A DNA stretch of 21,272 nucleotides from a virus (taxonomy: Duplodnaviria; Heunggongvirae; Uroviricota; Caudoviricetes). The stretch lies in the IMG/VR virus record IMGVR_UViG_2617270964_000007, positions 1 to 21,272 of that record. One strand, given 5' to 3'. The notes under the pieces were generated by a model. It worked only from the letters and a program-made list of their open reading frames with translations. It searched no databases and was not told where the DNA came from. Both the position numbers and the translations under genes were made by a program. Of the stretch, positions 1,369 through 21,272 are shown piece by piece; position 1 is the first letter of the stretch; each line of letters begins with the position of its first letter.

Positions 1369-1444
1369 GCCGATATAGCTCAGTTGGTAGAGCAGCGCAT
1401 TCGTAATGCGAAGGTCGTAGGTTCGACTCCTATTATCGGCACCA
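1369..1444 (+). tRNA. thrW: tRNA-Thr, anticodon CGU, 76 nt including encoded CCA
   Basis: GCCGATATAGCTCAGTTGGTAGAGCAGCGCATTCGTAATGCGAAGGTCGTAGGTTCGACTCCTATTATCGGCACCA folds as a cloverleaf: 7-bp acceptor stem GCCGATA/TATCGGC, anticodon loop with CGT, T-arm GGTTCGACTCC. It lies downstream of proA, as thrW does in E. coli, and is a known integration site for P22-type integrases. Confidence 0.9.
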
Positions 1445-1458
1445 TTAAAATCAAGTAG
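1400..1458. other. attL: Probable attL (prophage left attachment junction overlapping the 3' end of thrW); exact core not delimitable without attR
   Basis: The integrase stop codon is at 1459, 15 bp after the tRNA 3' end. tRNA-targeting integrases recombine within the tRNA 3' end. The extent is inferred. Confidence 0.35.
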
Positions 1459-2619
1459 TTACCCCATATTTAAATACACCACGTTCTCCTCTTGTGCCGT
1501 ATTTGTGCCATTGCGACTTATAATCGCATCGATTTTGCTTGCGTGCTCGGTGAGATGCCCGGCTGAAAGGTGGGCGTATCTTTGAACCATTTCGAGAGTT
1601 TCCCATCCTCCCATCTCTTTAAGTGCAAGAAGAGAGACACCGGACTGAACCAGCCAGCTTGCCCAGGTATGCCTCAGATCATGGAAGCGGAAGTTACTAA
1701 TGCCTGCCCGCTTTAACGCTCCCTTCCATGCCTTGTTGCTGTCGGTTCTCATCTTCCTTACCGCTGCTGTTTTTGTTCCGTCGCTTCGGTAGGCAGGTTT
1801 GGTGTGGACAAATACCCATCTCTTATGGAGCCCCTGCTGTTTTCTTAATATCTGGCATGCGGTTTCGTTAAGAGGAACTCCGATCGCATTGCCAGCTTTT
1901 GTTTCATCAGGGTGTATCCATGCCATTTTCTTATCCAGATCGACCTGTGACCACTCAAGGTCTGTAACGTTGGAACGGCGAAGGCCTGTCGTGATTGCAA
2001 ACATGACCACAGGGAAGAAGTGAGGAGCAATTTCTGCAAACAGGCGCTTCGATTCCTCCTCTGTAAGCCATCTGATGCGTCCATTCTTAACGCGTGGTGT
2101 TGATATTTTGGGTGCCCTGTCAAGCCATCCCCATTCAACAGCCATATTGAGAATGGCGCGAAGTATTGCCAGATGCCTCGTCTTCGTTCCTTTGCTTGCA
2201 AGCTTTGGTTTATACTCCGGCACCGGATTGCCAAGTCGCAAACACCTGTCCCGGCTCATCTCCCAGTTCAGGCGATGGCGGCGGTTTTCCATCCCATCTA
2301 CCGCCTCCATTATTTTTTCTGTTGTTATGTCAGAGAGAATGGCTTCTCTGAAGTGCAACATCCAGAACGATATAATGCTCTTGTCATCATCAATGGACTT
2401 CTTATCCGATTTCTCACGCAGCCACCGTATGCAGGCTTCCTTGAATAGCTTTTTCGGTGATTCCCCGAGATTTTTTACTCTCCACGCTTCTGCTTTCAGA
2501 CGATCGTGAAGTTCTTGCGCTTGCCTTTTGTCCGATGTTTCAAGAGAGCGTCTAACTCTTGATCCATCTGGCGCGACGAAATCGCAGTGCCACGTGCCAC
2601 CGCGTAGTTTGATTGACAT
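1459..2619 (-). CDS. int: Tyrosine-type site-specific integrase (P22/CP4-6 IntF-like), 386 aa
   Basis: ATG at 2619 preceded by AGGAGG. C-terminal catalytic region HDLRHTWASWLVQSGVSLLALKEMGGWETLEMVQRYAHLS carries the tyrosine-recombinase HxxR...Y signature. Position next to a tRNA att site. Confidence 0.9.
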   Translation of the reverse strand: MSIKLRGGTWHCDFVAPDGSRVRRSLETSDKRQAQELHDRLKAEAWRVKNLGESPKKLFKEACIRWLREKSDKKSIDDDKSIISFWMLHFREAILSDITTEKIMEAVDGMENRRHRLNWEMSRDRCLRLGNPVPEYKPKLASKGTKTRHLAILRAILNMAVEWGWLDRAPKISTPRVKNGRIRWLTEEESKRLFAEIAPHFFPVVMFAITTGLRRSNVTDLEWSQVDLDKKMAWIHPDETKAGNAIGVPLNETACQILRKQQGLHKRWVFVHTKPAYRSDGTKTAAVRKMRTDSNKAWKGALKRAGISNFRFHDLRHTWASWLVQSGVSLLALKEMGGWETLEMVQRYAHLSAGHLTEHASKIDAIISRNGTNTAQEENVVYLNMG

Positions 2620-2843
2620 GCTTTAACCTCCTGCACATCAACCGCATTCACCGCGCTATTGTGTCTCACAGACTTAAGCGCCGCAATGCAGTCTGACTTG
2701 CAAATGCGATATGGGCTTTTAGGTTTATCTGGATTTATCTTTGCGGCCTGAAGTCGTCCACTTCGTATCCACTGCGTGATAGTGCCTTTGTCTACCTTCA
2801 GATACGACGCTGCCTCTTCACGAGTGAAGATTTCTTCTTCCAC
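2496..2843 (-). CDS. xis: Excisionase / AlpA-like HTH DNA-binding protein; GTG start, 3' end overlaps int by about 124 nt
   Basis: Directly upstream of int on the same strand. The N-terminus (FTREEAASYLKVDKGTITQWIRSGRL) looks like an excisionase-type winged helix. GTG at 2843 is preceded by GGAGAT. The overlap with int is typical of lambdoid xis-int. Confidence 0.6.
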   Translation of the reverse strand: MEEEIFTREEAASYLKVDKGTITQWIRSGRLQAAKINPDKPKSPYRICKSDCIAALKSVRHNSAVNAVDVQEVKACQSNYAVARGTAISSRQMDQELDALLKHRTKGKRKNFTIV

Positions 2844-2933
2844 CTGGAATCTCCATTTATTGGATTGGTATTATTGCGGTAGGTCTGGATATCATTGAGC
2901 AATGAACAGGCCTCATCGAGTATGAGGCTGTGG

Positions 2934-3278
2934 TTAGTCCTTGCGTAACTCGCTAATTCTTCTGTAAGTCTCTGGTGCTTTGTTTCCGTGTATCTTCATT
3001 TCAGACTTCAACAGATCAACGAGGGAATCCCATTCGTTGAGGATTCCTTTGAATGCCGGAACGCGCTTTGCAACCTTGTCGAATGAATCTCTGATTTCTG
3101 GAATCTGCTCAACAAGTGCAACGCATAGTCGGAAATCTGCTGCGTCATGTGGAGCGCCGAAGTGATGACCATAGATATTCTTTTTCAGTCCACATGCGAT
3201 TGAGGCAAGAGTTGCGCTACTGATGCCGACATCGCCAGTCGATTGCCATTTCAAAACCTTCATAGCCAAATCTGACAT
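2934..3278 (-). CDS. Hypothetical protein, 114 aa, int-proximal accessory gene
   Basis: ATG at 3278 with GGAG 7 nt upstream. I recognise no family. It sits in the xis-proximal accessory region of the leftward early operon. Confidence 0.5.
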   Translation of the reverse strand: MSDLAMKVLKWQSTGDVGISSATLASIACGLKKNIYGHHFGAPHDAADFRLCVALVEQIPEIRDSFDKVAKRVPAFKGILNEWDSLVDLLKSEMKIHGNKAPETYRRISELRKD

Positions 3279-3358
3279 TTCTTGTCTCCATAAAACAAAC
3301 CCCGCCGTAGCGAGTTCAGATAAAAGAAATCCATCAATTGGTTAGGGTTTTTGTAATT

Positions 3359-3550
3359 CTATGAATTATGTTGTTTTTTAGCTTCAGCTTTCCATTCATC
3401 AAAGGCAGTGTCTTTGTTCATGGTGCTGATATTGATCTTACGGTCAATATCATATACACGCCACTCACCGTTAGGCCTCTCTTCGCATCTAACTAAGTAT
3501 GAATTGCCATTAATATCTATGCGTCTGTCTATTTGCATGAACATTTTCAA
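3359..3550 (-). CDS. Hypothetical small protein, about 61-63 aa (TTG at 3550 or ATG at 3544)
   Basis: ORF with AGAGGA 8-9 nt upstream of the TTG. Local sequence is visibly AT-rich. No family recognised. Confidence 0.4.
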   Translation of the reverse strand: MKMFMQIDRRIDINGNSYLVRCEERPNGEWRVYDIDRKINISTMNKDTAFDEWKAEAKKQHNS

Positions 3551-3664
3551 TTTTCGAATCCTCTTTAATATGCATTTTTTTTTGCTATTTCAGTAGTTTA
3601 CTATTGATGAGGCGTTATTATACACACTTCATTAATGCAAGCATCTTTATGCTATGCTACTAAT

Positions 3665-3946
3665 TTAGCAATTGATATTCACCTTTATCGCGTATACCTT
3701 TACCGGTTTATCACCGAAGTGGGGGTGTGTGATTGTTTTCACTTCATATCCTCCATACGGAACATCAATTCTGCGACTGGAGTCGTCGCGCTTCGGATAT
3801 CCCTTTGTGATAATCAGGCGGTCATACTCCCGGAACATAATTCGCTTATTCCAATAGTCATTACACAGGCGATACTCTTCCGTTTTCTCTCCTCGAATCA
3901 TGGCATCGAAGTATTCACCTTTGACGGCAAGTTGTAGGTTAGCCAC
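3665..3946 (-). CDS. Small PUA/ASCH-like domain protein (tentative), 93 aa, GTG start
   Basis: GTG at 3946 preceded by AGGAGG at optimal spacing. The N-terminus LQLAVKGEYFDAMIRGEKTEEYR resembles the beta-barrel opening of ASCH/PUA-like domains. The fold assignment is a guess from sequence pattern. Confidence 0.45.
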   Translation of the reverse strand: MANLQLAVKGEYFDAMIRGEKTEEYRLCNDYWNKRIMFREYDRLIITKGYPKRDDSSRRIDVPYGGYEVKTITHPHFGDKPVKVYAIKVNINC

Positions 3947-4673
3947 GGTTAACCTCCTGCGGCGGTTCTGGCAGCGGCATCCAGTGGGTTACGTCATCCA
4001 AGATATTTCCTGATAAATATGTGAAAGCTCTATATTTTTTGTAATCAATTGGACTCATTACCCAGTTCCAATATGCTGCCACTATTTGACCTTGACTAAA
4101 TGCCAGTAACATTTTGGTGTCGTCCGGCATTCGCTCACTACAGCTTATCCAACCATCCGGAGTTACCGGAGAGTTGCCATTTACATCGAAGTTTGGCTCT
4201 GCGTCCTGAATCAGGAGGATGTAGCCATTCTTGGCAGTATCAAGTTCTAACGCCTCGGTGACGGTGCCGAAATAGCGATTACCTAAATCAGCATCACAAG
4301 TACTTACATCAATGGAAACTTCCATGCCTTCGATTAATTCTGGCAAGTTGTAAGCTTGGCTTACAGGTTCGGCTTCCAGTTCTGCAATGCGCTTTTTTGC
4401 TGTTTCCAGCTCGCCCAGCAGCGCCAAGACGGTAGCCGGATTGGCTGCAGCGATGAATTCAGCATTGGCCTGCTGTTCCATTTGGAAATCTTCATCGAAA
4501 CCGCTTTCTGGATGCGCTCCTTCAATTCTGCAAATGGGAAGATATCCAACAACTTCACGATGAATTAGTGCATCACCAGCATCAAATCTCTCCTCTCCAT
4601 ATTCGAGCGACCACACACCACACGTTGCTTTCTCTGCCGCCTCACGCAGTGCCTGATAGTCAATCTTGCTCAC
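3939..4673 (-). CDS. Ead/Ea22-like protein with C-terminal DUF551-like domain; probable GTG start at 4673 (track ORF extends to 4694)
   Basis: AAAGGAGG lies 6 nt upstream of the GTG at 4673, giving [16 protein letters not shown]..., as Ead/Ea22-family proteins begin in my recollection. The C-terminal segment [11 protein letters not shown]...[10 protein letters not shown] resembles DUF551. Confidence 0.6.
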
Positions 4674-4837
4674 TGTTTGCCTCCTTTGCGCCACATCGCA
4701 TTCAGATATTTGTTTTGATTCACTGATGGAAAAGAATTTCTCTTAAGCAATTCCTCTCTCGATGGCATTGGCTTTACGCGTTGGCGAATAATCATTTCTG
4801 CCGGAAGAATGCCGGGATTGTATGCAAGTCCTCTCAT
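4670..4837 (-). CDS. Small basic hypothetical protein, 55 aa
   Basis: ATG at 4837 with AGAGGAA upstream. Its stop overlaps the start of the downstream Ea22-like gene (GTGA), suggesting translational coupling. Below the 60-aa ORF-track threshold. Confidence 0.3.
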
Positions 4838-4853: not shown

Positions 4854-5168
4854 TTAATTTATTCGTATGCCAGCTCTTTCTTCATCGAGTTTTTTTAGCT
4901 TGTATCGCATAGCTCTTACTGAATAAATTGAGCGGCAGGTTGCAATTGCTATTTCTTCTGCGGAGAACTTACCGAAAAGTGATACTTCGGCTCTTGTCCA
5001 GCGTCTTCCACGAAGTCGGCTAACAATGTCAGCGCCAATCCTTGTTGCTTTCGCCATAACTGCTTTTTCAGTCCTTTCCAGTTTTTCAGCGATAACTTCA
5101 ACTGGCATTGTCGCCGCTACTTCGCGCAAGAAATCGACTTCCCATTTCTCCCATGGAGTCTTTTTCAT
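4854..5168 (-). CDS. Hypothetical protein with two Myb/SANT-like helix-turn-helix repeats (tentative)
   Basis: Two segments with spaced tryptophans ([17 protein letters not shown]... and [24 protein letters not shown]...) resemble tandem Myb-like repeats. The start is probably the ATG at 5168; the track begins at a TTG at 5174. Confidence 0.45.
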
Positions 5169-5179
5169 AGGCAATACCG

Positions 5180-5662
5180 TTATTTGATAAGAAGTGAAGG
5201 TTTCCCAACTTTGAGTTGAGCGCCGGGGATATTTATTCCTGCTTTTAGTTGGTGTTTGATTGCCAGTTTGTCGGCTTTAATTGTCGTTTCAAACTCAACG
5301 TATTCAGGAGGAAGGGCGCTTGAGTCGATTATTTCTACAATTTCTGACGGTTTGCGGATTGTTACCTGGTGAATACCTGCTCGAATATTTTTCTTGCCAA
5401 CCATTTCAAGCGATGACGCTATATATGATTTGATGCTGTCAATCTTATTTTGAATTACTGCGGCTCGCTCATTTAGTGACTTTGCCTCTTCCTTGAGGCG
5501 TTCAGCATAACCATATTCATTTTTAATAATGGCAAGAAGTTGCTCTATTTTATCGGTAAATTCTCCTTCCATGCCTTCTATTGTGTCAGCAATCATCTCT
5601 GGCTCTAAATCTGAATCCATCAGCTTTGCATATTCATTGGCTATTTCATACAGTTTGCTCAC
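5180..5662 (-). CDS. Siphovirus Gp157-family protein (recombination-module accessory), about 160 aa, probable GTG start
   Basis: Coiled-coil-rich sequence immediately downstream of recT. AGAGGT lies 5 nt upstream of the GTG at 5662. Gp157-family proteins commonly accompany RecT/Sak recombinases. Confidence 0.55.
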   Translation of the reverse strand: MSKLYEIANEYAKLMDSDLEPEMIADTIEGMEGEFTDKIEQLLAIIKNEYGYAERLKEEAKSLNERAAVIQNKIDSIKSYIASSLEMVGKKNIRAGIHQVTIRKPSEIVEIIDSSALPPEYVEFETTIKADKLAIKHQLKAGINIPGAQLKVGKPSLLIK

Positions 5663-6548
5663 TGGCAACCTCTAGTTTCGCTTTGCATTCTATGTAAATG
5701 GCTTGTACGTTCTGCTGCAATTTCATTCCAGATGTCAGGCGATATGCTTCTGCAAAATATCGCTTCAAATCATCCATGTTTTCTGCCTGAGCCATTTCAT
5801 CACAAAGAAGTTGTGCTTTTTCCATAATTTCCTGCTGGTGTTTCCGTTCATCTTCGCGGATATCTTCCTCTGATTTGTGCGGCATAACTGGTTCCTGATG
5901 CATACCTTCATCTTCGTTAAGCAGGTGAATGGCATTATCCAGTCGCTGGGCTTTAGGCCAGTATTTGCTGGCGCGTTTAACTATTGTTTTACGCGCCATC
6001 TCTTCCCAGAATGTTTTCCACGGTCCATTCTTTGCCTTGCTCGTTGCTTCCACTGCTTTAATTTCTGCCAGACTCATTTCTTCAGTCAGGTAGTCACCAT
6101 CTGCTGTTTTTACCGTGCAATAACCACCAACAATAGAGCCTCGCTCTCCAAATGCGTTGTATTTGTGAGTTGGTGCTGAATCAAGGCCGTTTGATTCATA
6201 GGTGTCGTTTGAGTACACCAGTTTGCATTGCCCCCACTTAATTGATCCTGTCGATTGCGCAAGATGAAGTAATCCCATGTAACTGATATCAAGGCACACC
6301 ATGCCGTCGCGAGGAACCAGATAAGCTAGTTTGCTGGCCGGGTTTAAGGTGATGCCGATCGCCGCAACATTGATGATGGCGTTCTGTGCGCTGGTTGGAT
6401 TTGCCAGTGCTGTTTTAGCCAGGTAATCGTTTTTCTGGAAATACTGAATTGCAAACTGGCTTTCCTTAGCCCATGTCACCGTCTGTTCAGTCAATGCTCC
6501 GCAGAATAACTGCTCTTGCTGTTTAACGAATTCAACGATATTGCTCAT
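5646..6548 (-). CDS. recT: RecT-family single-strand annealing recombinase, 300 aa
   Basis: ATG at 6548 with GGAGAAG upstream. The translation has the RecT/Red-beta core as I recognise it (…PRDGMVCLDISYMGLLHLA…FGERGSIVGGYC…). It sits in the recombination position of the leftward early operon. Confidence 0.8.
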   Translation of the reverse strand: MSNIVEFVKQQEQLFCGALTEQTVTWAKESQFAIQYFQKNDYLAKTALANPTSAQNAIINVAAIGITLNPASKLAYLVPRDGMVCLDISYMGLLHLAQSTGSIKWGQCKLVYSNDTYESNGLDSAPTHKYNAFGERGSIVGGYCTVKTADGDYLTEEMSLAEIKAVEATSKAKNGPWKTFWEEMARKTIVKRASKYWPKAQRLDNAIHLLNEDEGMHQEPVMPHKSEEDIREDERKHQQEIMEKAQLLCDEMAQAENMDDLKRYFAEAYRLTSGMKLQQNVQAIYIECKAKLEVASEQTV

Positions 6549-6856
6549 GCAGCTTCTCCATAAATATGTCTGCGTTTGAATATTGCGAAGGCATATTCAG
6601 CCTTAACTCTTTCGGTTATTGCATCCCAGAACCATTCAGCGGCTTTTTCCTGATAGTTACAGTCATCATCTTCCAGCCAGTCGATAGCGTCCTTAGTGTG
6701 TTCATCTGGTTTATATGAGCGAAGCATTTCGCTTATTGGGTCGCAACGTTTGCAGAGGCGATCAACTTCACTGTTGATTCGCTCGTAATCTTCATCAGTA
6801 AAACTTGCGATTATTTGCGATATTTCACGCTTATCATTCAGAGTCAGAATCATCAT
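6545..6856 (-). CDS. Hypothetical acidic protein, 103 aa
   Basis: ATG-ATG start at 6856 with AGGAGA upstream. Translationally coupled to recT (ATGA overlap). No family recognised. Confidence 0.5.
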   Translation of the reverse strand: MMILTLNDKREISQIIASFTDEDYERINSEVDRLCKRCDPISEMLRSYKPDEHTKDAIDWLEDDDCNYQEKAAEWFWDAITERVKAEYAFAIFKRRHIYGEAA

Positions 6857-6941
6857 CTTTCTCCTGTTCTTTGTGCTGATTGAGCATTTCTTTCATCTGA
6901 CGAATGAATTCTTCGTCTGACCAGTTATCTGTAAAACTCAT
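6834..6941 (-). CDS. Small hypothetical protein, 35 aa, acidic C-terminus
   Basis: Start overlaps the stop of the upstream Kil-like ORF (ATGA). The short SD spacing makes it uncertain. Confidence 0.2.
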   Translation of the reverse strand: MSFTDNWSDEEFIRQMKEMLNQHKEQEKDDDSDSE

Positions 6942-7090
6942 TTCCTGCGATACCATGGAAGGTTGATAGCTGATTTCATCGCTTTATTTGCTTCAAGCCA
7001 CATTTTTGAATCACCAATAAATCGGGCTATTACTGCTTTGTTTTGTGCAGCACGAAGCATCTGGTGATTGATGGCTATTTCATTGCGCAT
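6938..7090 (-). CDS. Small protein, possibly Kil-like (50 aa)
   Basis: ATG at 7090 with GGAGG 5 nt upstream. The segment IARFIGDSKMW resembles what I recall of lambda Kil, but the recollection is uncertain. Its position, just promoter-distal of the CIII-like ORF, matches lambda gene order. Confidence 0.35.
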   Translation of the reverse strand: MRNEIAINHQMLRAAQNKAVIARFIGDSKMWLEANKAMKSAINLPWYRRK

Positions 7091-7209
7091 AACGCCTCCA
7101 GTTGTTTCTTTGCTGCTCTGATTAATTGTTTAACTCGGCGTGATAATTCAGATTCGTGCGGGGAGAAAGCGGACATGACGCCGCTACCCGCGAGCTGAAA
7201 GTGCATCAT
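7075..7209 (-). CDS. Small protein, possibly CIII-like FtsH inhibitor (44 aa)
   Basis: ATG at 7209 with AAGGAG upstream. The translation MMHFQLAGSGVMSAFSPHESELSRRVKQLIRAAKKQLEAL echoes the lambda CIII pattern (…AIAG…SESLLERITRKLRDGWKRL…) as an amphipathic helix after an AG-rich start. Confidence 0.4.
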   Translation of the reverse strand: MMHFQLAGSGVMSAFSPHESELSRRVKQLIRAAKKQLEALCAMK

Positions 7210-7292
7210 GGGTAACTCCTTATATTTGATTGCATAACGAAAACGCCTCAAGTGAAGCGTTATTGGTATGCGGTAAAGCCGCGCTCAGGCGG

Positions 7293-7541
7293 CTACTCTA
7301 TTTCTTCTTCGAATGATTTTATTAGCCGGTCAATAACATCATCTGTTTCAATATCATTTCCGTCTGATTGCTTTAATACGTCTATTGATTCTGCTGCGGT
7401 AAATTCCATCGCTGTGAGAAACTCGACAATTGCACACTCAACGACATGTCGTTCTTCATCTGTACGACATGAGATAAAAGAGCATTTAATTGCTGTTATT
7501 ACTTTTTGTTTAAGTTCTGCAGGATAATCAGTTTTTATCAT
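7293..7541 (-). CDS. Hypothetical acidic protein, 82 aa
   Basis: ATG at 7541 with GGAG 7 nt upstream. It is the first gene after the intrinsic terminator at 7555-7584. No family recognised. Confidence 0.5.
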   Translation of the reverse strand: MIKTDYPAELKQKVITAIKCSFISCRTDEERHVVECAIVEFLTAMEFTAAESIDVLKQSDGNDIETDDVIDRLIKSFEEEIE

Positions 7542-7554
7542 CGTTTACTCCGTC

Positions 7555-7584
7555 AAAAAAAATTGCCCTCACACTGGAGGGCAA
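7555..7584 (-). terminator. Rho-independent terminator in the leftward early operon (tL-like)
   Basis: On the minus strand an 8-bp stem (TTGCCCTC / GAGGGCAA, 6-nt loop) is followed by a run of 8 U. It lies between the 7687-8157 gene and downstream early genes, so N-dependent readthrough would be needed. Confidence 0.6.
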
Positions 7585-7686
7585 AGAAGATTTCCAATAA
7601 TCAGAACAAGTCGGCTCCTGTTTAGTTACGAGCGACATTGCTCCGTGTATTCACTCGTTGGAATGAATACACAGTGCTTATTCGTA

Positions 7687-8157: not shown

Positions 8158-8219
8158 ATCTCACCTCAAATAAGTGGTTTGCTGCCAAAACAATAAACCA
8201 TCCGGAAATTCCAGATAGC

Positions 8220-8444: not shown

Positions 8445-8447
8445 CAC

Positions 8448-9072: not shown

Positions 9073-9119
9073 CTGCCAATCTGTTCCGTTTAGCTACCAG
9101 CGTCCTGCTGATGGCTTAA

Positions 9120-12976: not shown

Positions 12977-12993
12977 TGGGGGAGAGGGAAGTC

Positions 12994-14973: not shown

Positions 14974-14975
14974 CA

Positions 14976-15260
14976 ATGGATTATTCACAGTTAAGTGATT
15001 TTGAAATTAACGTGGCGGTATTCGAAGCCATTCATAACGGATCACCGGATTACAAAGAAGGTGAGAATGGCGCGATGGTGTTTATCTCATTTGAGGGAGA
15101 CATTGTAAACGGAGACGCAGTTGAAGTAGAAGTTGAGCGCGGATCCTTTAACCCATGCGCAAACCCAGCAGACGCATGGCCGATTATTGAAAAATACAGG
15201 ATTAGCATTATCAATCTCGATGAAGACGAGTGGGGGTGCACGCGGTGTGGCCTACTGTAA
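14976..15260 (+). CDS. Hypothetical acidic protein, 94 aa, at the position where lambda carries ninE
   Basis: ATG at 14976 with GAGGAA 6 nt upstream. No family recognised. The C-terminus has a CxxC (CTRCG). Confidence 0.45.
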   Translation: MDYSQLSDFEINVAVFEAIHNGSPDYKEGENGAMVFISFEGDIVNGDAVEVEVERGSFNPCANPADAWPIIEKYRISIINLDEDEWGCTRCGLL

Positions 15261-15335
15261 ATCTAAGCGAGCTATACATGAAAATCCCCTCCGCGCCGCC
15301 ATGATTGTCTTTCTCATGATGCAGAGAATCCAATA

Positions 15336-15515
15336 ATGCTTAGCCCATCCCAATCCATTCAATACCAGAAAGAAAGCGTCGAGCGAGCTTTAACGTGCGC
15401 TAAATGCGGTCAGAAGCTGCATGTGCTGGAAGTTCACGTGTGTGAGCACTGCTGCGCAGAACTGATGAGCGATCCGAATAGCTCAATGTACGAGGAAGAA
15501 GACGATGGTGATTAG
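15336..15515 (+). CDS. ninF: NinF-like small cysteine-rich protein, 59 aa
   Basis: The translation MLSPSQSIQYQKESVERALTCAKCGQKLHVLEVHVCEHCCAELMSDPNSSMYEEEDDGD carries CxxC…CxxCC (a zinc-ribbon-like pattern) and resembles lambda NinF as I recall. It falls below the track length cutoff. Confidence 0.6.
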   Translation: MLSPSQSIQYQKESVERALTCAKCGQKLHVLEVHVCEHCCAELMSDPNSSMYEEEDDGD

Positions 15516-15897
15516 CCGATACGGAAAAATAACGTTTAAACATTTTCAAGACAATCCAACATGGGCTGCTGCGGCTGGATATGACTTTAATTATTTTGAT
15601 TGTCTGTCAGTCGCATGTATTGCAACTACCAATGTTGCTAACAACATAATCGATGAATTCTTGGATTTTCCAGACTATCAGGTCAGAGAGTTGCCTGCAT
15701 TTTTTGTGAAAGTATCTGTTGCTACAGCTCTGTTATTTATTTTGTTATTCGCATATCCATTGCTTGCCGTATTTGTTTATGTGAGATGCAAGCACTCACA
15801 AAATGAATACACCGGAGAGCATACCGATATTACCAGCCAAAATATGCGAGTGTGGTTGAGGAGATGCCAAGAGAAATGGGGGAGAAGTCATGGCTAA
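15505..15897 (+). CDS. Hypothetical membrane protein, 130 aa, one predicted transmembrane helix, moron-like
   Basis: ATG at 15505 overlaps the ninF stop, with GAGGAAG upstream. The hydrophobic segment FFVKVSVATALLFILLFAYPLLAVFVYV is followed by a basic stretch. The gene is AT-rich and has no counterpart in the lambda nin region as I recall it. Confidence 0.5.
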   Translation: MVISRYGKITFKHFQDNPTWAAAAGYDFNYFDCLSVACIATTNVANNIIDEFLDFPDYQVRELPAFFVKVSVATALLFILLFAYPLLAVFVYVRCKHSQNEYTGEHTDITSQNMRVWLRRCQEKWGRSHG

Positions 15898-16180
15898 CCT
15901 ACGCAAAGAAGCGCGCGGAAGAGAATGCCAGGTACGTATTTACGGCATATGCAATGGAAATCCTGAAACTACAGTTCTGGCACATTACCGGATGGCTGGA
16001 ATTTGCGGAACGGGAATGAAACCTGACGACCTGATCGGCGCATGGGCTTGTAGTGACTGCCACGCGGAGATCGACCGACGCACAAGGATTCTCGACAACA
16101 AAGACGCCAGACTTTACCACCTCGAAGGCGTGATCAGGACGCAGGCGATACTGCTGAAGGAGGGGAAGATTAAGTCATGA
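15890..16180 (+). CDS. DUF1364 / YbcO-like putative metal-binding nuclease, 96 aa
   Basis: Cys/His pattern C-x7-C…H…C…C-x3-C-x2-H as in DLP12 YbcO. It lies immediately upstream of rusA, as ybcO does in DLP12. Confidence 0.7.
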   Translation: MANLRKEARGRECQVRIYGICNGNPETTVLAHYRMAGICGTGMKPDDLIGAWACSDCHAEIDRRTRILDNKDARLYHLEGVIRTQAILLKEGKIKS

Positions 16181-16539
16181 ACGAATATCAGTTTGTGCTT
16201 CCATACCCGCCGTCGGTGAACACCTACTGGCGAAGACGGGGAAGCCAATACCACATCAGCGATAAAGGCCAGAAATACCGAAAAGACGTTCAGCAAATCA
16301 TCCGCCAACTTAAGTTAGACATTTTCACCAAATCACGACTCCGCATCAAAGTCATCGCAGACGTTCCAGACTCCCGCCGCCGCGACCTCGACAACATCCT
16401 GAAAGGTTTACTCGACTCCCTTATCCACGCCGGATTTGCGGAAGACGACGAGCAATTCGATGACATTCGCGTAATTCGTGGTGTGAAAGTACCAGGCGGA
16501 CGGCTTGGAATAAAAATCACCGAACTGGAGAACGTATGA
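16177..16539 (+). CDS. rusA: RusA-family Holliday junction resolvase (NinG-position endonuclease), 120 aa
   Basis: Conserved RusA segments: PPSVNTYW near the N-terminus, the catalytic-aspartate region DVPDSRRRDLDNILKGLLDSL, and the GGRLGIKITEL C-terminus. Confidence 0.85.
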   Translation: MNEYQFVLPYPPSVNTYWRRRGSQYHISDKGQKYRKDVQQIIRQLKLDIFTKSRLRIKVIADVPDSRRRDLDNILKGLLDSLIHAGFAEDDEQFDDIRVIRGVKVPGGRLGIKITELENV

Positions 16540-16724
16540 ACGCCACAATTCAAACGATACCAGAGCTTCTTATCCAGACACGAGGCAATCAGACCGAAGT
16601 GGCGAGGATGCTTTCCTGCGCAAGAGGAACAGTGCTCAAGTACAACCGAGACAGCAAAGGCGAGCGTCATGTAATAGTTAACGGCGTCCTGATGGTCAAA
16701 CAGGGCAAGAGGGGAAGACGATGA
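16536..16724 (+). CDS. ninH: NinH-like small DNA-binding protein, 62 aa
   Basis: The translation …GNQTEVARMLSCARGTVLKYNRD… resembles lambda NinH (…GNQTEVARRLKCSRGTVRKY…). It is translationally coupled between rusA and Q. Confidence 0.65.
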   Translation: MNATIQTIPELLIQTRGNQTEVARMLSCARGTVLKYNRDSKGERHVIVNGVLMVKQGKRGRR

Positions 16725-17344
16725 GACTCGAAAGCGTAGCTAAATTTCATTCGCCAAAAAGCCCGATGATGAGCGACTCACCACGGGCTACGGCTTCTGA
16801 CTCTCTTTCCGGTACTGATGTGATGGCTGCTATGGGGATGGCGCAATCACAAGCCGGATTCGGTATGGCTGCATTCTGTGGTAAGCACGAACTCAGCCAG
16901 AACGACAAACAAAAGGCTATCAACTATCTGATGCAATTTGCACACAAGGTATCGGGGAAATACCGTGGTGTGGCAAAGCTCGAAGGAAATACTAAGGCAA
17001 AGGTACTGCAAGTGCTCGCAACATTCGCTTATGCGGATTATTGCCGTAGTGCCGCGACGCCGGGGGCAAGATGCAGAGATTGCCATGGTACAGGCCGTGC
17101 GGTTGATATTGCCAAAACAGAGCTGTGGGGGAGAGTTGTCGAGAAAGAGTGCGGAAGATGCAAAGGCGTCGGCTATTCAAGGATGCCAGCAAGCGCAGCA
17201 TATCGCGCTGTGACGATGCTAATCCCAAACCTTACCCAACCCACCTGGTCACGCACTGTTAAGCCGCTGTATGACGCTCTGGTGGTGCAATGCCACAAAG
17301 AAGAGTCAATCGCAGACAACATTTTGAATGCGGTCACACGTTAG
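16721..17344 (+). CDS. Q: Late-gene antiterminator Q, lambda-type, 207 aa
   Basis: The translation MRLESVAKFHSPKSPMMSDSP… with the zinc-binding CRDCHGTG…CGRCKG region matches lambda Q as I recall. It is followed by the lambda pR'/qut/tR' sequence. Confidence 0.9.
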   Translation: MRLESVAKFHSPKSPMMSDSPRATASDSLSGTDVMAAMGMAQSQAGFGMAAFCGKHELSQNDKQKAINYLMQFAHKVSGKYRGVAKLEGNTKAKVLQVLATFAYADYCRSAATPGARCRDCHGTGRAVDIAKTELWGRVVEKECGRCKGVGYSRMPASAAYRAVTMLIPNLTQPTWSRTVKPLYDALVVQCHKEESIADNILNAVTR

Positions 17345-17386
17345 CAGCATGATTGCCACGGATGGCAACATATTAACGGCATGATA

Positions 17387-17425
17387 TTGACTTATTGAAT
17401 AAAATTGGGTAAATTTGACCCAACG
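17387..17425 (+). promoter_or_regulatory. Late promoter pR' with overlapping qut site (Q-utilisation)
   Basis: -35 TTGACT (17387-17392), a 17-nt spacer and -10 TAAATT (17410-17415), with the transcription start near 17422. The sequence is essentially the lambda pR' region. Confidence 0.75.
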
Positions 17426-17615
17426 ATGGGTTAATTCGCTCGTTGTGGTAGTGAGATGAAAAGAGGCGGCGCTTACTACCGATTCCGCCTAGTTGGTCAC
17501 TTCGACGTATCGTCTGGAACTCCAACCATCGCAGGCAGAGAGGTCTGCAAAATGCAATCCCGAAACAGTTCGCAGGTAATAGTTAGAGCCTGCATAACGG
17601 TTTCGGGATTTTTTA
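17422..17615 (+). ncRNA. Lambda-type 6S RNA (short pR' transcript terminated at tR' in the absence of Q), about 194 nt
   Basis: The distance from the predicted pR' start to the end of the tR' U-run is 194 nt, the known size of lambda 6S RNA. The two track ORFs over this region (17456-17650, 17489-17773) are therefore not called as coding. Confidence 0.6.
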
Positions 17616-17616
17616 T
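17556..17616 (+). terminator. tR' intrinsic terminator
   Basis: A long imperfect hairpin AATCCCGAAAC…GTTTCGGGATT is followed by TTTTTTAT (U-run 17609-17616). Confidence 0.7.
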
Positions 17617-18020
17617 ATCTGCACAACAGGTAAGAGCATTGAGTCGATAATCGTGAAGAGTTGGCGAGCCTGGTTAGCCAGTGCTCTTTCCGTTGTGCTG
17701 AATTAAGCGAATACCGGAAGCAGAACCGGATCACCAAATGCGTACAGGCGTCATCGCCGCCCAGCAACAGCACAACCCAAACTGAGCCGTAGCCACTGTC
17801 TGTCCTGAATTCATTAGTAATAGTTACGCTGCGGCCTTTTACACATGACCTTCGTGAAAGCGGGTGGCAGGAGGTCGCGCTAACAACCTCCTGCCGTTTT
17901 GCCCGTGCATATCGGTCACGAACAAATCTGATTACTAAACACAGTAGCCTGGATTTGTTCTATCAGTAATCGACCTTATTCCTAATTAAATAGAGCAAAT
18001 CCCCTTATTGGGGGTAAGAC

Positions 18021-18344
18021 ATGAAGATGCCAGAAAAACATGACCTGTTGGCCGCCATTCTCGCGGCAAAGGAACAAGGCATCGGGGCAATCCTTGCGTT
18101 TGCAATGGCGTACCTTCGCGGCAGATATAATGGCGGTGCGTTTACAAAAACAGTAATCGACGCAACGATGTGCGCCATTATCGCCTGGTTCATTCGTGAC
18201 CTTCTCGACTTCGCCGGACTAAGTAGCAATCTCGCTTATATAACGAGCGTGTTTATCGGCTACATCGGTACTGACTCGATTGGTTCGCTTATCAAACGCT
18301 TCGCTGCTAAAAAAGCCGGAGTAGAAGATGGTGGAAATCAATAA
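18021..18344 (+). CDS. S: Class I holin S with dual start (S107 antiholin / S105 holin)
   Basis: The translation [20 protein letters not shown]… carries the Met1-Lys2-Met3 dual-start motif and three hydrophobic segments. It matches lambda S. Confidence 0.9.
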
Positions 18345-18804
18345 TCAACGTAAGGCGTTCCTCGATATGCTGGCGTGGTCAGAGGGAACTGATAACGGAC
18401 GACAGAAAACCAGAAATCATGGTTATGACGTCATTGTAGGCGGAGAGCTATTCACTGATTACTCCGATCACCCTCGCAAACTTGTCACGCTAAACCCAAA
18501 ACTCAAATCAACAGCAGCCGGTCGCTATCAGCTTCTTTCCCGTTGGTGGGATGCCTATCGTAAGCAGCTTGGCCTGAAAGACTTCTCTCCCAAAAGCCAG
18601 GACGCTGTGGCATTGCAGCAGATTAAAGAGCGTGGCGCTTTACCGATGATTGATCGCGGTGATATTCGTCAGGCTATCGACCGTTGCAGCAATATCTGGG
18701 CTTCACTTCCGGGGGCTGGTTATGGTCAGTTCGAGCATAAGGCTGACAGCCTGATTGCAAAATTCAAAGAAGCTGGCGGAACGGTCAGAGAGATTGAGGT
18801 ATGA
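18328..18804 (+). CDS. R: Endolysin R (lytic transglycosylase), 158 aa
   Basis: The translation [26 protein letters not shown]… matches the lambda R family, with the catalytic Glu in the WSEGTD context. It overlaps the S 3' end as in lambda. Confidence 0.9.
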
Positions 18805-19268
18805 GCAGAGTAACCGCGATTATTTCCGCTCTGGTTATCTGCATCATCGTTTGCTTGTCATGGGCTGTTAATCATTACCGTGATAATGCAATCGCCTACA
18901 AAGAACAGCGCGATAACAAGGCCAGTGAACTGGAGAAGGCGAACGCCACCATTACTGACATGCAGCAACGCCAGCGTGCTGCTGATGCACTCGATGCTAA
19001 ATACACGAAGGAGTTAGCTGATGCGAAAGCTGAAAATGATGCTCTTCGGCGCAAGCTTGATAATGGTGGCAGGGTGCTCGTCAAAGGAAAATGCCCTGTG
19101 CCATCGTCAGCCGAAACCTCCGGCGCCTCCGGCATGGGCAATGATGCCACCGTCGAACTCTCTCCAGTTGCTGGACGAAACGTTCTCGATATCCGGGACG
19201 GAATTATCCGCGACCAAACAGCACTGAGAACGCTTCAGGAATACATTAGGACGCAATGCCTTCGATGA
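18801..19268 (+). CDS. Rz: Spanin inner-membrane subunit Rz (i-spanin), 155 aa
   Basis: N-terminal transmembrane helix ([18 protein letters not shown]) followed by a coiled-coil periplasmic domain. The N-terminal half is lambda-like and the C-terminal third diverges from lambda Rz as I recall it. Confidence 0.85.
19021..19227 (+). CDS. Rz1: Spanin outer-membrane lipoprotein Rz1 (o-spanin), embedded in the +1 frame of Rz
   Basis: Signal peptide with lipobox (…LIMVAGC) followed by a proline-rich mature region ([14 protein letters not shown]). It lies entirely within Rz in a different frame. Confidence 0.7.
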
Positions 19269-19466: not shown

Positions 19467-19614
19467 GCATCTGCAGTAAACCGCGCATCGCAGCGCGTAA
19501 CAATCCCGAGTCTTTCAGAAAGCTGAGCCTGAGAATTGCCGTATATGGTGGCGACCATCTCGGGGACGGCTTTTCTGTGCGAACAGGCTCATCTTTCTAA
19601 AAGGTAAAGACGCA

Positions 19615-20157
19615 ATGAACTACCCAACCGTTGTTAACGATATAGATTTCAGAGACCTAATTTTTGTAGCAAACAACGATCCGGTTACAGATTCTTTTAT
19701 GGTGGCAAAAGCATTTGGAAAGCTGCCGAAGAACGTGGTTCGTGACATTGAACGAACCATAGAAGCTTGCCCTCCTGAGTTTGATACAAAGCTCAACTTT
19801 GAGCTTTGCTATAAAAACAATGAGTTACAGAATGGTAAGCCGCAAAAATTCTACCGTCTCCGCAAGGATGGGTTGATGCTTTTGGTTATGTCCTACACCA
19901 AAAAAGAAGCAATGCGTATCAAAATTGCTTACATCAACGCATTTAACTGGATGTACGCCATGCTTCAGGTTGGTCATCGTCAATTTGAAGAAGAGAGAAA
20001 TGCCGTAATGCTGGAGTACATGAAAGAGAAGGATGTTGCCAGCATGTCAGGGCGCCTGCTTAATCGCTGGGGAAAAATTAAGAAGCCTCAGCTACTGGCG
20101 AGAATTGAACGCCTTGAACAGCACGGGCAAACCGTAATCCCCGGACTCACTAATTAA
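19615..20157 (+). CDS. rha: Rha-family phage regulatory protein, 180 aa
   Basis: The N-terminal domain pattern …VTDSFMVAKAFGKLPKNVVRDIERT…GKPQKFYRLRKDGLMLLVMSYTKKEAMRIKIAYINAFNWM matches the Phage_pRha family signature as I recall it (VxTDSxxVAxxFGKxHKNVLRDI…). ATG at 19615. Confidence 0.7.
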   Translation: MNYPTVVNDIDFRDLIFVANNDPVTDSFMVAKAFGKLPKNVVRDIERTIEACPPEFDTKLNFELCYKNNELQNGKPQKFYRLRKDGLMLLVMSYTKKEAMRIKIAYINAFNWMYAMLQVGHRQFEEERNAVMLEYMKEKDVASMSGRLLNRWGKIKKPQLLARIERLEQHGQTVIPGLTN

Positions 20158-20452
20158 CGGCAGTACAGCGAAACAACCCAAGCCAGTAAGTGGGGAAATA
20201 ACACTGGCAGCCACTGAAAGATGAACCTCCTGCATTATGGCAAAAAAGATTCTTTGTGGTGGCGGACTGATGGAAAGACATCGGTTATTGCAGAGACCAT
20301 TCAATGAGTGGTCTCGACAATGGCTTATACCCTACACGGGATAACTTAACTGATATCCCCACAAGCGGATAAAGAGGTCCCTCAATGTCAGGAATCTACT
20401 TTTAGTCCTAGTAATGATGAACTAGATATCAGTTGAGTCGCTTGGGTGGTGA

Positions 20453-20661
20453 TTACGATTCTGCTTCAAACTCAGAAATTAGTTGATGAACACGTTCAGT
20501 ATATGATGGGTTAGAACCTAGAAACTCTTCCACTGTCTGAATGGTTTCATCACCCTCCCATTCAAAATGGCTCACAGGCGACGAATGACCAACCCTGACT
20601 TGGTAGGAGCCATTGTCCAATTTGTCCAGGAATATATAAGTTTCATTATCATGACCTGTAT
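20453..20661 (-). pseudogene. 3' fragment (about 69 codons) of an unidentified minus-strand gene, with the IS1 end abutting its upstream boundary
   Basis: An open frame without an in-window start, …HYHTGHDNETYIFLDKLDNGSYQVRVGHSSPVSHFEWEGDETIQTVEEFLGSNPSYTERVHQLISEFEAES, ends at the TAA complementary to 20453-20455. It runs open up to the IS1 terminal inverted repeat at 20662 and continues into IS1 sequence, so any 5' part must lie beyond the IS1 copy. Confidence 0.4.
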
Positions 20662-20676
20662 GGTAATGACTCCAAC

Positions 20677-21180
20677 TTATTGATAGTGTTTTATGTTCAG
20701 ATAATGCCCGATGACTTTGTCATGCAGCTCCACCGATTTTGAGAACGACAGCGACTTCCGTCCCAGCCGTGCCAGGTGCTGCCTCAGATTCAGGTTATGC
20801 CGCTCAATTCGCTGCGTATATCGCTTGCTGATTACGTGCAGCTTTCCCTTCAGGCGGGATTCATACAGCGGCCAGCCATCCGTCATCCATATCACCACGT
20901 CAAAGGGTGACAGCAGGCTCATAAGACGCCCCAGCGTCGCCATAGTGCGTTCACCGAAAACGTGCGCCACAACTGTCCTCCGTATCCTGTCATACGCGTA
21001 AAACAGCCAGCGCTGACGTGATTTAGCACCGACGTAGCCCCACTGTTCGTCCATTTCCGCGCAGACGATGACGTCACTGCCCGGCTGTATGCGCGAGGTT
21101 ACCGACTGCGGCCTGAGTTTTTTAAATGGCGGAAAATCGTGTTGAGGCCAACGCCCATAATGCGGGCGGTTGCCCGGCAT
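20677..21180 (-). CDS. insB: IS1 transposase InsB reading frame (expressed as the InsAB' fusion by -1 frameshift)
   Basis: The translation …[53 protein letters not shown]… is the IS1 InsB sequence. Confidence 0.88.
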
Positions 21181-21272
21181 CCAACGCCATTCATGGCCAT
21201 ATCAATGATTTTCTGGTGCGTACCGGGTTGAGAAGCGGTGTAAGTGAACTGCAGTTGCCATGTTTTACGGCA
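21099..21272 (-). CDS. insA: IS1 InsA (C-terminal portion; 5' end beyond the window)
   Basis: Reverse-complement translation gives …[18 protein letters not shown] ending at the TAA complementary to 21099-21101. The A6C frameshift window TTTAAAAAAC is present on the minus strand near 21118-21127. Confidence 0.7.

Follow-up and report, generated by a model that had tools for sequence, protein, structure and literature searches.

A mosaic lambdoid prophage at thrW, most probably built by repeated recombination in the E. coli lambdoid gene pool

In the window, i.e. the whole 21,272-nt stretch analysed, the host gene proA and thrW are followed by a temperate lambdoid prophage, of which the left ~19.3 kb are present (Table 1). 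From the observed identities and junction positions we infer with high confidence that the prophage arose by repeated recombination in the E. coli lambdoid gene pool rather than by a single cross between P22 and lambda. The highest coverage of the window was 48% among 50,697 phage records and 64% among 5,426 complete E. coli genomes, so that 80% coverage was not reached in either set. The preliminary description of a mosaic prophage was thus borne out, uniform similarity to a single phage not being found.

The prophage extended from thrW to the IS1 element at 20662 and carried integration, recombination, immunity, replication, nin, late control and lysis regions. In E. coli TUM9803 and MLI108K3 proA also adjoins thrW, and the att overlap from 1399 on is shared by P22, HK446 and this prophage. 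With the contig ending in IS1, the window does not reach the virion half or attR, and the results cover the left part of the prophage.

Table 1. Features of the window; gene functions are putative and assigned by homology.
Feature	Position	Strand	Evidence
proA, host flank, 3' part	1-1254	+	98-100% identity to proA of E. coli TUM9803 and MLI108K3
tRNA-Thr(CGT), thrW	1369-1444	+	ARAGORN; Rfam tRNA 71.8 bits
attL overlap, left prophage boundary	1399-1444		Common to P22 attP region and annotated HK446 attP
Tyrosine integrase, HK446 type, P22 Int family	1459-2619	-	Xer/tyrosine-recombinase profiles
Excisionase, P22 Xis type	2496-2843	-	HK446 counterpart annotated excisionase
phrog_1229, early-left accessory	2934-3278	-	Pfam and PHROG scans
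phrog_16329, early-left accessory	3359-3550	-	Pfam and PHROG scans
phrog_625, early-left accessory	3665-3946	-	Pfam and PHROG scans
Ead/Ea22-DUF551, early-left accessory	3939-4694	-	Pfam and PHROG scans
DUF2737, like P22 orf56	4670-4837	-	77% protein identity to P22 orf56
Abc1-like or hypothetical, recombination module	4854-5174	-	
Gp157 family, recombination module	5180-5668	-	PF05565 on source contig
RecT	5646-6548	-	PF03837 RecT on source contig
phrog_3486, recombination module	6545-6856	-	
kil	6938-7090	-	PF06301 Lambda_Kil on source contig
cIII	7075-7251	-	PF02061 Lambda_CIII on source contig
phrog_14587, labelled anti-restriction, small pL-operon gene	7293-7541	-	PHROG scan
phrog_1636, small pL-operon gene	7687-8157	-	PHROG scan
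phrog_5305, small pL-operon gene, named ral in phi367 record	8220-8447	-	PHROG scan
N antiterminator, 90 aa, chimeric	8448-8720	-	phrog_271 N-like; PF25694 N_peptide
nutL: boxA 9060-9072, boxB hairpin 9032-9049	9032-9072	-	Direct sequence reading
pL and OL operators	9119-9190	-	Promoter scan TTGACC/TAAATT at 9147-9119; aligns with P22 OL region
Prophage repressor, P22 C2 type	9240-9890	-	100% identical to CUS-3 cI
OR3 9891-9908, OR2 9916-9933, OR1 9939-9956, with pRM and pR	9891-9956	+	
cro, P22 type	9971-10156	+	PF14549 P22_Cro; 95% protein identity to P22 Cro
nutR: boxA 10163-10175, boxB 10189-10206	10163-10206	+	
c1 (cII-like activator), P22 type, 92 aa	10265-10543	+	PF05269 Phage_CII
Small ORF, replication module	10578-10739	+	
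O-like initiator	10726-11547	+	50% protein identity to P22 gp18
DnaB-type helicase	11544-12920	+	90% protein identity to P22 gp12
tR2 terminator (hairpin 12946-12969)	12946-12979	+	Terminator scan
ninB	12994-13434	+	
dam methyltransferase	13431-13958	+	
ninC-like PAPS reductase	13955-14800	+	
ninE	14797-14973	+	
ninX, frameshifted	14976-15336	+	
ninF	15336-15515	+	
phrog_2638 ORF, 130 aa	15505-15897	+	
YbcO/DUF1364	15890-16180	+	
rusA	16177-16539	+	
ninH	16536-16724	+	
Q late antiterminator	16721-17344	+	Lambda Q: 207/207 aa, 621/624 nt
pR' (-35 at 17387, -10 ending 17415), qut, 6S leader RNA, tR'	17387-17617	+	Promoter scan
orf-64	17456-17650	+	100% protein identity to lambda
tR' hairpin	17556-17617	+	
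S holin, lambda type	18021-18344	+	99% protein identity; 100% nucleotide over 18021-18327
R endolysin, lambda type	18328-18804	+	98.7% protein, 95.6% nucleotide identity
Rz spanin	18801-19268	+	61.7% protein identity to lambda overall
Rz1, embedded in Rz, with lipobox (VAGC)	19021-19227	+	
Rha-family regulator	19615-20157	+	PF09669 and PF10549
Small hypothetical gene, 5' end lost to IS1	20453-20661	-	
IS1 (IS1B-like), to window and source-contig end	20662-21272	-	97-99% identity to IS1 copies
IS1 insB	20677-21180	-	PF03400 DDE_Tnp_IS1

An alternative origin, which the preliminary description implies, is a hybrid of two parents: a left arm resembling P22 (integration, immunity, replication) and a right arm resembling lambda (from ninB to mid-Rz) meet near tR2, and the lambda-like part ends at a second junction within Rz. 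The lambda homology indeed started at 12917 beside tR2 and stopped at 19048 in Rz, the C2, Cro and C1 proteins were of P22 type, and the prophage occupied the P22 att site. However, only 14% and 12.5% of the 100-bp windows of the prophage were at least 90% identical to lambda and P22, respectively, and 21% to either phage, compared with about 86% when the best match among ten E. coli phage and prophage references was taken. Greedy tiling with these ten references required at least 15 segments. Together with the continuity of P22 similarity at tR2, described below, these values refute the simple two-parent model, which we consider highly improbable. For each functional module nearly identical copies (95-100%) occur in different coliphages or prophages. 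The nearest relative of a module was an E. coli phage or prophage rather than P22, where a nearest relative depends on the sampled references and is not necessarily the actual parent.

The int/xis module was closest to HK446 (97% nucleotide identity, also for int itself), the record of which likens its Int to that of SfX. The preliminary assignment of this module to the P22 type held for the architecture, the 124-nt int/xis overlap being the same in P22 (22393-22743 vs 21353-22516), and for the att site; it did not hold for the proteins, as Int shared 54% (68% in nucleotides) and Xis 42% identity with P22, the Int value being a further argument against a P22 parent. The early-left accessory genes (2934-4837) had patchy 94-99% matches among other E. 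coli genomes. The recombination module (4854-6856), including RecT, was 98% identical to the TUM9803 prophage, whose record annotates these genes; it corresponded neither to lambda exo/bet nor to P22 erf, and no tblastn match was obtained against lambda and P22. The kil and cIII genes (6938-7251) were 96-99% identical to HK446 and Kapi1. The three small pL-operon genes (7293-8447) shared 97-100% identity with the Stx-type phage phi367 and gave no matches in PADLOC and NCBIfam searches; phi367 was also the nearest relative (~98%) of the block adjoining N (7558-8735).

The N-like gene had been described as P22-type, yet over its whole length its product shared only 35% identity with P22 gp24. 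In the alignment its N-terminus carries the arginine-rich RNA-binding motif (ARM) of CUS-3, Gally and phi367, and its C-terminal end (~25 aa) matches both P22 gp24 and phi367. This chimeric N is not the gp24 of P22. The boxB sequences of nutL and nutR were identical to each other and differed from those of both P22 and lambda. The ARM, both boxB sites, the operators and the repressor all lay within one CUS-3-like block; these interacting parts are co-inherited.

The P22 type of the repressor, Cro and C1 was confirmed by protein identities of 92, 95 and ~90%, respectively, with conserved operators. Only 2 positions differed from P22 in repressor residues 1-53, within which the helix-turn-helix lies. 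The value for C1 refers to the 92-aa gene (9 differences); for the long ORF it is 82%. Of 80 nt in the OR region, 77 were the same as in P22 (OR1 18/18, OR2 17/18, OR3 17/18), and pR was matched by the promoter scan at 9913-9940. The immunity region as a whole was nevertheless 99.4% identical to CUS-3 and ~83% to P22, which disagrees with a P22 parent. Phage Gally shares this C2 immunity region and, along with it, the types of Q, S and R.

The replication module (10578-12920) was ~97-98% identical in nucleotides to HK446 and TUM9803, whereas its identity to P22 was patchy (56% to 100% per 100 nt), and the low identity of the O-like protein to P22 gp18 also speaks against the two-parent origin. 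The predicted tR2-like terminator at about 12950 was found as the lambda tR2 hairpin; lambda was 100% identical over 12950-13099, tR2 being the same. As a P22-to-lambda junction this position failed, since P22 itself was 90.7% identical across 12917-13434.

The nin region (12994-16724) is a mosaic in its own right. Close similarity to lambda had been claimed from ninB through Q, but at least 96% identity was limited to 12917-13434, 14804-14970 and 15370-15508, i.e. 824 of the 3,804 nt in 12917-16720, which the two-parent origin does not predict. Among the nin genes, such matches covered ninB, ninE and a portion of ninF and no others. The ninC-like gene was 68.6% identical to lambda in nucleotides and 54% in protein, NinH was a divergent allele (56% protein identity), and lambda had no counterpart of Dam, NinX, the 130-aa ORF, YbcO/DUF1364 and RusA. 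Conversely, the lambda genes ninG and ninI were absent here. The nearest relative of Dam and NinC was E. coli ST540 and that of the 130-aa ORF E2348/69, both with 99.8% identity.

The similarity to lambda described for Q, pR'-qut-6S-tR', S, R and the first half of Rz was well founded, with 97.4% nucleotide identity over the 2,339 nt of 16711-19048 and a single mismatch, at 17420, in pR'/qut/6S/tR'. The identity fell stepwise from 99.69% (16721-18327) to 95.6% (18328-18850) and 81.8% (18851-18998), both steps before the Rz breakpoint being significant by Fisher's exact test (p = 2e-10 and 3e-7). A junction in Rz had been placed near 18950; it does lie inside the gene, at 19048, i.e. at residue 83 of 155 and 27 nt into Rz1. 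Residues 1-83 were lambda-like, and the Rz C-terminal half and mature Rz1 changed together to the allele of Kapi1 and TUM9803 (98% nucleotide identity over 19001-19200). In P22 itself Q is of lambda type (97% protein identity to Q here), and so is the holin (90%); therefore, P22 immunity with lambda late control needs no special junction and is the normal state of the P22-like phage group. The same mosaic pattern, with Q proteins that share 99% identity with that of lambda, has been described for P22-like phages (PMC2629481).

Alignment ends common to several references were found at 7677, 12948 (tR2), 13434, 13958, 14797, 15507, 15890, 17616 (tR') and 20148, all coinciding with gene or signal boundaries. 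With two intragenic junctions, in N at about 8600 and in Rz at 19048, the gene-boundary rule is not absolute; most junctions follow it, and parts required to cooperate remain linked. Such joins could in principle be produced by misassembly of reads from several lambdoid prophages or by laboratory lambda DNA, since the source is a draft assembly with a contig ending in a repeat (IS1) and E. coli carries many related prophages (median 14 window-matching places per genome). However, the same joins were present with 1-2 mismatches in two further, independent assemblies, SRR1186660 (4976-18480) and SRR28158972 (12917-18480), many of them occurred in complete genomes, the window was 100% identical to the NCBI contig JHDG01000081.1, and the ORFs were unbroken across the junctions. 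A laboratory contaminant would be identical to lambda, whereas 5 of 1,607 positions differed in 16721-18327 and divergence increased gradually thereafter. An artefact is accordingly the least probable of the explanations, with almost no weight left. Repeated recombination is further in line with recombinase-driven exchange with prophages, for which an experimental demonstration has been reported (PMC3945230).

At the right end rha was 100% identical in nucleotides to CUS-3, its product shared 56% identity with P22 Rha, and the exact protein was indexed in 8,592 blocks of the assembly collection. The truncated gene at 20453-20661 was 98-99% identical to a 78-aa gene which in E. coli BY63 lies directly upstream of the terminase small subunit gene; this segment was present in 12 of 5,426 genomes. 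A terminal inverted repeat was read at 20662, and the source contig extends 2 nt beyond the window. As the virion genes, wherever these are located, are cut off from the lysis/rha region by IS1, the late operon is probably interrupted. Decay to a remnant in which immunity and exclusion functions alone are kept for the host is suggested by this IS1, which separates the lysis/rha region from the terminase gene position of relatives, and by the +1 frameshift of ninX, reproduced in independent assemblies. Lambda stays viable without the nin region, to which ninX belongs. All ORFs of the window with essential early, regulatory or lysis roles were intact and shared 95-100% identity with their counterparts in functional phages, and one IS1 does not prove loss of the virion genes, which may be on another contig. 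A remnant is thus possible but rather unlikely; it concerns the present state and not the origin, and is compatible with repeated recombination.

If the modules act as their homologues do, Int and Xis would act on the thrW att site, and the repressor of P22 C2 specificity would shut pL and pR at P22-type operators. After induction the chimeric N would work on its own matching boxB in nutL and nutR, and the genome would be replicated by the O-like initiator and the DnaB-type helicase. Lambda Q would load at qut on pR' and read past tR' into lambda S and R, and the transcription should also reach the hybrid Rz/Rz1 spanin. The combination of modules is new, the modules themselves are known, and a mosaic of this sort is the textbook norm for the lambda family.

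The prophage was compared with lambda (NC_001416) and P22 (NC_002371) by blastn, tblastn and sliding-window identity. The 100-bp windows with at least 90% identity made up 14% of the prophage with lambda, 12.5% with P22, and 21% with either of the two. When ten references were used (lambda, P22, CUS-3, HK446, Gally, Kapi1, phi367 and three E. coli prophages), 86% of the 100-bp windows reached 90% identity to at least one of them, and at least 15 segments were required in the greedy tiling. The remainder, outside the ten references, had 97-99.8% matches elsewhere in E. coli. Annotated relatives that are nearly identical existed for every gene. The exact combination of modules, at a coverage of at least 80%, was absent among 50,697 phage records and 5,426 complete E. 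coli genomes, and the uniform descent from one known phage was rejected on this coverage. The number of segments and the lack of a record covering at least 80% of the window confirm the preliminary description of a mosaic prophage. However, its division into a P22 arm and a lambda arm with two junctions was too simple, considering the low share of windows close to either phage and the number of segments in the tiling.

The gene order, determined by the ORF map and homology, was the canonical lambdoid one: att-int-xis ... recombination-kil-cIII ... N-nutL-pL/OL-repressor-OR/pR-cro-nutR-cII-O-P-nin-Q-pR'-tR'-S-R-Rz/Rz1. It matches the annotations of lambda, P22, CUS-3, HK446, Gally and Kapi1, and patches of high identity to other lambdoid phages alternate with unrelated DNA. 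The boundaries in the table are the alignment ends common to several references, and their distribution is classically lambdoid. For P22-like phages, the epsilon34 genome paper (PMC2629481) describes the early operons as highly mosaic. The exchange between phages and resident prophages via phage recombinases was shown experimentally (PMC3945230). The prophage encodes a RecT-family recombinase.

Coordinates of the prophage limits, the lambda matches and the alignment ends shared by several references
Feature	Position	Content or location	Identity or basis
proA	1-1254		ORF listing and comparison with annotated genomes
thrW tRNA-Thr(CGT)	1369-1444	lambdoid prophage starts inside the tRNA	tRNA search and annotated-genome comparison
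Prophage right limit in the window	20661		IS1 terminal inverted repeat at 20662
Lambda match	12917-13434	tR2 and ninB	96.7% nucleotide identity
Lambda match	13947-14535	ninC-like gene	68.6% nucleotide identity
Lambda match	14804-14970	ninE	96.4% nucleotide identity
Lambda match	15370-15508	ninF, part	97.1% nucleotide identity
Lambda match	16711-19048	Q to mid-Rz	97.4% nucleotide identity
Shared alignment end	7677	intergenic, after terminator	
Shared alignment end	12948	tR2	
Shared alignment end	13434	ninB stop	
Shared alignment end	13958	dam stop	
Shared alignment end	14797	ninE start	
Shared alignment end	15507	ninF end	
Shared alignment end	15890	ybcO start	
Shared alignment ends	17444 and 17616	flanking 6S RNA and tR'	
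Shared alignment ends	17777 and 17850	conserved sequence upstream of S	annotation of CUS-3: boundary sequence bsq3
Shared alignment end	18916	within Rz	
Shared alignment end	20148	rha stop	
Shared alignment end	20359	intergenic	

The window and the final 21.27 kb of the NCBI draft contig JHDG01000081.1 (GCA_000601135.1) were 100% identical. The contig stops 2 nt later inside IS1, therefore the virion genes and attR lie outside the available sequence. The same joins, including the frameshift in ninX, recurred with 1-2 mismatches in two more assemblies built from different read sets. The mosaic is real and not an assembly artefact.

The prophage shares with P22 the thrW site, the int/xis architecture, the C2/Cro/C1 immunity type and the operators. 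The att overlap is the 3' part of the tRNA from position 1399, which is common to the attP region of P22 (identical) and the annotated attP of HK446. The Int beside thrW belongs to the P22 family, and the xis gene, which encodes a long Xis, overlaps int by 124 nt both here and in P22. The protein identities to P22 were 54% for Int and 42% for Xis, with 68% nucleotide identity for int. The int/xis allele is that of HK446 and not P22's own: the proA-thrW-int-xis stretches of HK446 and of the thrW prophages in E. coli TUM9803 and MLI108K3 were 97-98% identical to the window. In the HK446 record, attP is annotated as similar to thrW and Int as similar to the Int of Shigella phage SfX. The att core of CUS-3 differs from the thrW overlap used here, indicating that CUS-3 uses another attachment site. 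No detectable similarity was found between the int/xis and recombination genes of lambda and their counterparts in the prophage.

The repressor protein was identical to that of CUS-3, a Lederbergvirus of E. coli K1 strain RS218. In residues 1-53, 51 of the 53 positions matched P22 C2, and the helix-turn-helix stretch (17-53) was identical. The operator OR1 matched P22 in 18 of 18 positions, whereas OR2 and OR3 had one base difference each (17/18). A C2-type DNA-binding domain is thus accompanied by matching OR/OL operators, and the repressor likely has the P22 immC specificity. The nucleotide identity of the immunity block was 99.4% with CUS-3 and JEP4, 97.6-97.9% with N7 and IME10, and about 83% with P22. 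For c2-cro-c1 the nucleotide identity with P22 was 82.7%, and the protein identities were 92% (C2), 95% (Cro) and about 90% (C1). The lambda repressor (35%) and O (37%) are distant protein relatives of those in the prophage.

The antiterminator N had been read as P22-type, which holds for the two ends of the protein only. The similarity to P22 gp24 is limited to a short N-terminal stretch, MTV(V)ITY, and to the last ~25 amino acids; the latter match both gp24 and the Stx-type phage phi367. The arginine-rich RNA-binding motif (ARM) and the middle part match CUS-3, Gally and phi367 instead. The ARM is NARNRRRARRQAQRE here and GNAKTRRHERRRKLAIER in P22. The boxB hairpin, CCCGCCGAAATGCGGG, is identical in nutL and nutR, whereas those of P22 are ACCGCCGACAACGCGGT (nutR) and GCGCTGACAAAGCGC (nutL); the hairpins of the prophage differ from lambda's as well. 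Neither the gp24 ARM nor a P22-type boxB was thus found. N is a chimera at the domain level, with an ARM of the CUS-3/phi367 type and a C-terminus of the P22 gp24 type. The repressor and the operators lie in one co-inherited block with the ARM and the nutL and nutR sites, and the RNA-binding arm appears to have been inherited together with its cis sites while the C-terminus came from another lineage. A scan of the window at the Rfam gathering thresholds returned the tRNA alone, with no curated family covering nut, 6S RNA or oop.

Between cIII and N, the pL operon (7293-8447) carries three small genes, phrog_14587 (labelled anti-restriction), phrog_1636 (156 aa) and phrog_5305, which are ~98% shared with phi367. 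Lambda and P22 hold ral and other host-interaction genes in the cIII-N region.

A junction between P22-like and lambda-like DNA had been placed at about 12950, near a tR2-like terminator. The tR2 hairpin of lambda was indeed located at 12946-12969, and the lambda homology begins at 12917, 3 nt before the stop codon of the helicase gene. However, P22 was 90.7% identical over 12917-13434 and 100% over 12700-12799, so no switch from P22 to lambda occurs. Lambda and P22 are mutually homologous in the tR2 area, which is a recurrent boundary of the family.

The region from ninB through Q had been described as a lambda-like block, which was not the case. The determined order was ninB, Dam, NinC-like, ninE, ninX, ninF, a 130-aa ORF (phrog_2638), YbcO/DUF1364, RusA, NinH and Q. 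Lambda ninG and ninI are absent from this region, and Dam, NinX, the 130-aa ORF, YbcO and RusA are interposed. The NinC-like PAPS reductase and NinH are divergent, with 54% and 56% protein identity to the lambda counterparts, respectively. Dam was assigned to PF05869 (E = 6e-65). The non-lambda nin segments were 99.8% matched in other E. coli, Dam and NinC in ST540 and the 130-aa ORF in the prophage of EPEC E2348/69. Outside the nin region and the late genes, similarity to lambda was detected in four short patches (50-121 nt) of the early-left region.

The Dam and NinC-like pair (13431-14800), located between ninB and ninE, was covered to at least 80% in only 28 of the 5,426 complete genomes. 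The NinC-like protein had only generic PAPS-reductase-domain matches (SspD, BrxP, DndC), far below family level, and its assignment to a defence system was not adopted on these grounds. The scans of the small early genes of unknown function with PADLOC and NCBIfam gave no hits. The 130-aa ORF (15505-15897) occupies the slot of the roi/KilAC antirepressor of most relatives; it had no Pfam, NCBIfam or PADLOC hit. The P22-type ninX (14976-15336) contains a +1 frameshift compared with the intact NinX of MLI108K3, due to one additional G in a run of Gs near 15232. The two independent read-set assemblies encode the truncated product of 94 aa as well, therefore the frameshift looks real rather than a sequencing error.

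The late control region was of the lambda type. Q was identical to lambda Q in 207 of 207 amino acids, tR' was identical, and the sole difference from lambda in pR'-qut-6S-tR' was a T-to-C substitution at 17420, downstream of the -10 hexamer and before the start of transcription. At the equivalent position, P22 carries the lambda base. Over 16721-18327 (Q, pR', qut, 6S, tR', orf-64 and S), 5 mismatches in 1,607 nt were detected (99.69% identity). The identity was 95.6% over 18328-18850 (R), 81.8% over 18851-18998 and 96% over 18999-19048, and beyond 19048 it fell to the background (~49%). The identity steps were statistically sharp (Fisher p = 2e-10 and 3e-7). Contamination with laboratory lambda was considered for the 99.7% block and rejected, since the block is not identical to laboratory lambda: it carries five substitutions, beyond it the identity declines in a graded manner, and non-lambda DNA adjoins it in three assemblies.

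The lysis cassette is also of the lambda type, with protein identities of 99% for the holin S and 98.7% for the transglycosylase-type endolysin R, and with Rz1 (19021-19227, lipobox VAGC) embedded in the +1 frame of Rz. The junction proposed within Rz at about 18950 falls in the zone of declining identity, but the true loss of homology was found ~100 nt further right, at codon 83 of 155 of Rz and 27 nt into the embedded Rz1. The C-terminal half of Rz and the whole mature Rz1 switch jointly to the Kapi1/TUM9803 allele (98% identical). These two parts interact within the spanin complex, so that a joint at 19048 makes functional sense. The alignments with Kapi1 and TUM9803 extend across the entire Rz, therefore the junction is an old feature of a common allele and not private to this prophage.

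The preliminary description had joined immunity of the P22 type to Q and lysis genes of the lambda type. A lambda-type Q (97%) and the holin (90% protein identity) are already present in P22, and the full set in Gally, which has a lambda-type Q like the prophage. P22 also shares the DnaB-type helicase (90% protein identity), the NinE, NinF and NinX types and the C-terminus of gp24/N. The nucleotide identity with P22 was 83%, unevenly distributed (56-100% per 100 nt), over the 3' part of gene 18, gene 12 and ninB; 78.6% for ninE/ninX/ninF; 94% for gene 23 (Q); 83% for the holin gene; and 88% for the 3' part of rha with the sequence downstream. In most shared genes it was 68-83%, and O was 50% identical in protein. 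In contrast to the prophage, P22 has erf in place of recT and the endolysin gp19 in place of lambda R, and the N ARM and boxB differ.

Among the closest systems were CUS-3, Gally and JEP4. In CUS-3, the 99.4% identity extends from nutL and OL over the repressor, OR and cro into the beginning of cII, N has the same N-terminal half, and the helicase, ninB, ninE, YbcO-RusA-NinH, S, R and rha were 96-100% identical. However, CUS-3 covers 39% of the window: it has a different Q of 172 aa, erf instead of recT, another O and roi in place of the 130-aa ORF, and lacks Dam and NinC. The replication genes of HK446 and TUM9803 were 97-98% identical to those of the prophage, whereas the accessory genes of HK446, TUM9803 and MLI108K3 differ. 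Neither HK446 nor TUM9803 shares the immunity region of the prophage, and the P22-type C2 allele of MLI108K3 has only ~83-85% nucleotide identity. HK446 also carries lambda-type ninG, ninH and ninI, unlike the prophage.

At the right end, a terminal inverted repeat and an InsB DDE transposase identified IS1 (20662-21272, 611 nt of the element in the window), which is IS1B-like with 97-99% identity. It is inserted ~10 codons into a small hypothetical gene on the minus strand (20453-20661). The junction of the prophage with IS1 had no exact match among genomes sampled at one per species. In E. coli BY63, the counterpart of the interrupted gene lies ~25 nt upstream of the terminase small subunit gene, and IS1 probably interrupts the late operon.

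The last 302 nt before IS1 (20360-20661) were present in only 12 of the 5,426 complete E. coli genomes. Of these 12, BY63 was examined, and there the segment is located directly upstream of TerS, a 540-aa protein, a DUF1073 portal and a Mu-F-like protein (BY63 stretch L010, 4001-8302). By tblastn, the portal was not matched in lambda, P22, CUS-3 or Kapi1, and the large terminase was only 31% identical to that of CUS-3. On the other hand, in all 10 places listed for a protein identical to the Rha just upstream of the segment, portal and coat genes of the P22 type come next. Due to this conflict between the 302-nt segment and the neighbours of Rha, the virion type is uncertain. An attachment of the early/lysis half across IS1 to a non-P22-like virion module, resulting in a cross-morphotype hybrid, is conceivable but rather unlikely.

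The prophage is a new combination of modules of a very well-known kind. The preliminary description was confirmed in part. It probably confers immunity of the P22/CUS-3 type. It carries the lambda Q/S/R late-control and lysis cassette, and owing to the IS1 interruption it may not produce phage. The apparent linkage of the N arm with its boxB sites would be a natural example of cis/trans co-inheritance. The tempting idea of a P22 x lambda hybrid is corrected as an over-simplification, and the significance extends little beyond annotation: the prophage illustrates cleanly and at good resolution how lambdoid phages evolve by modules, since its junctions lie mostly at gene boundaries and its interacting parts are inherited together.
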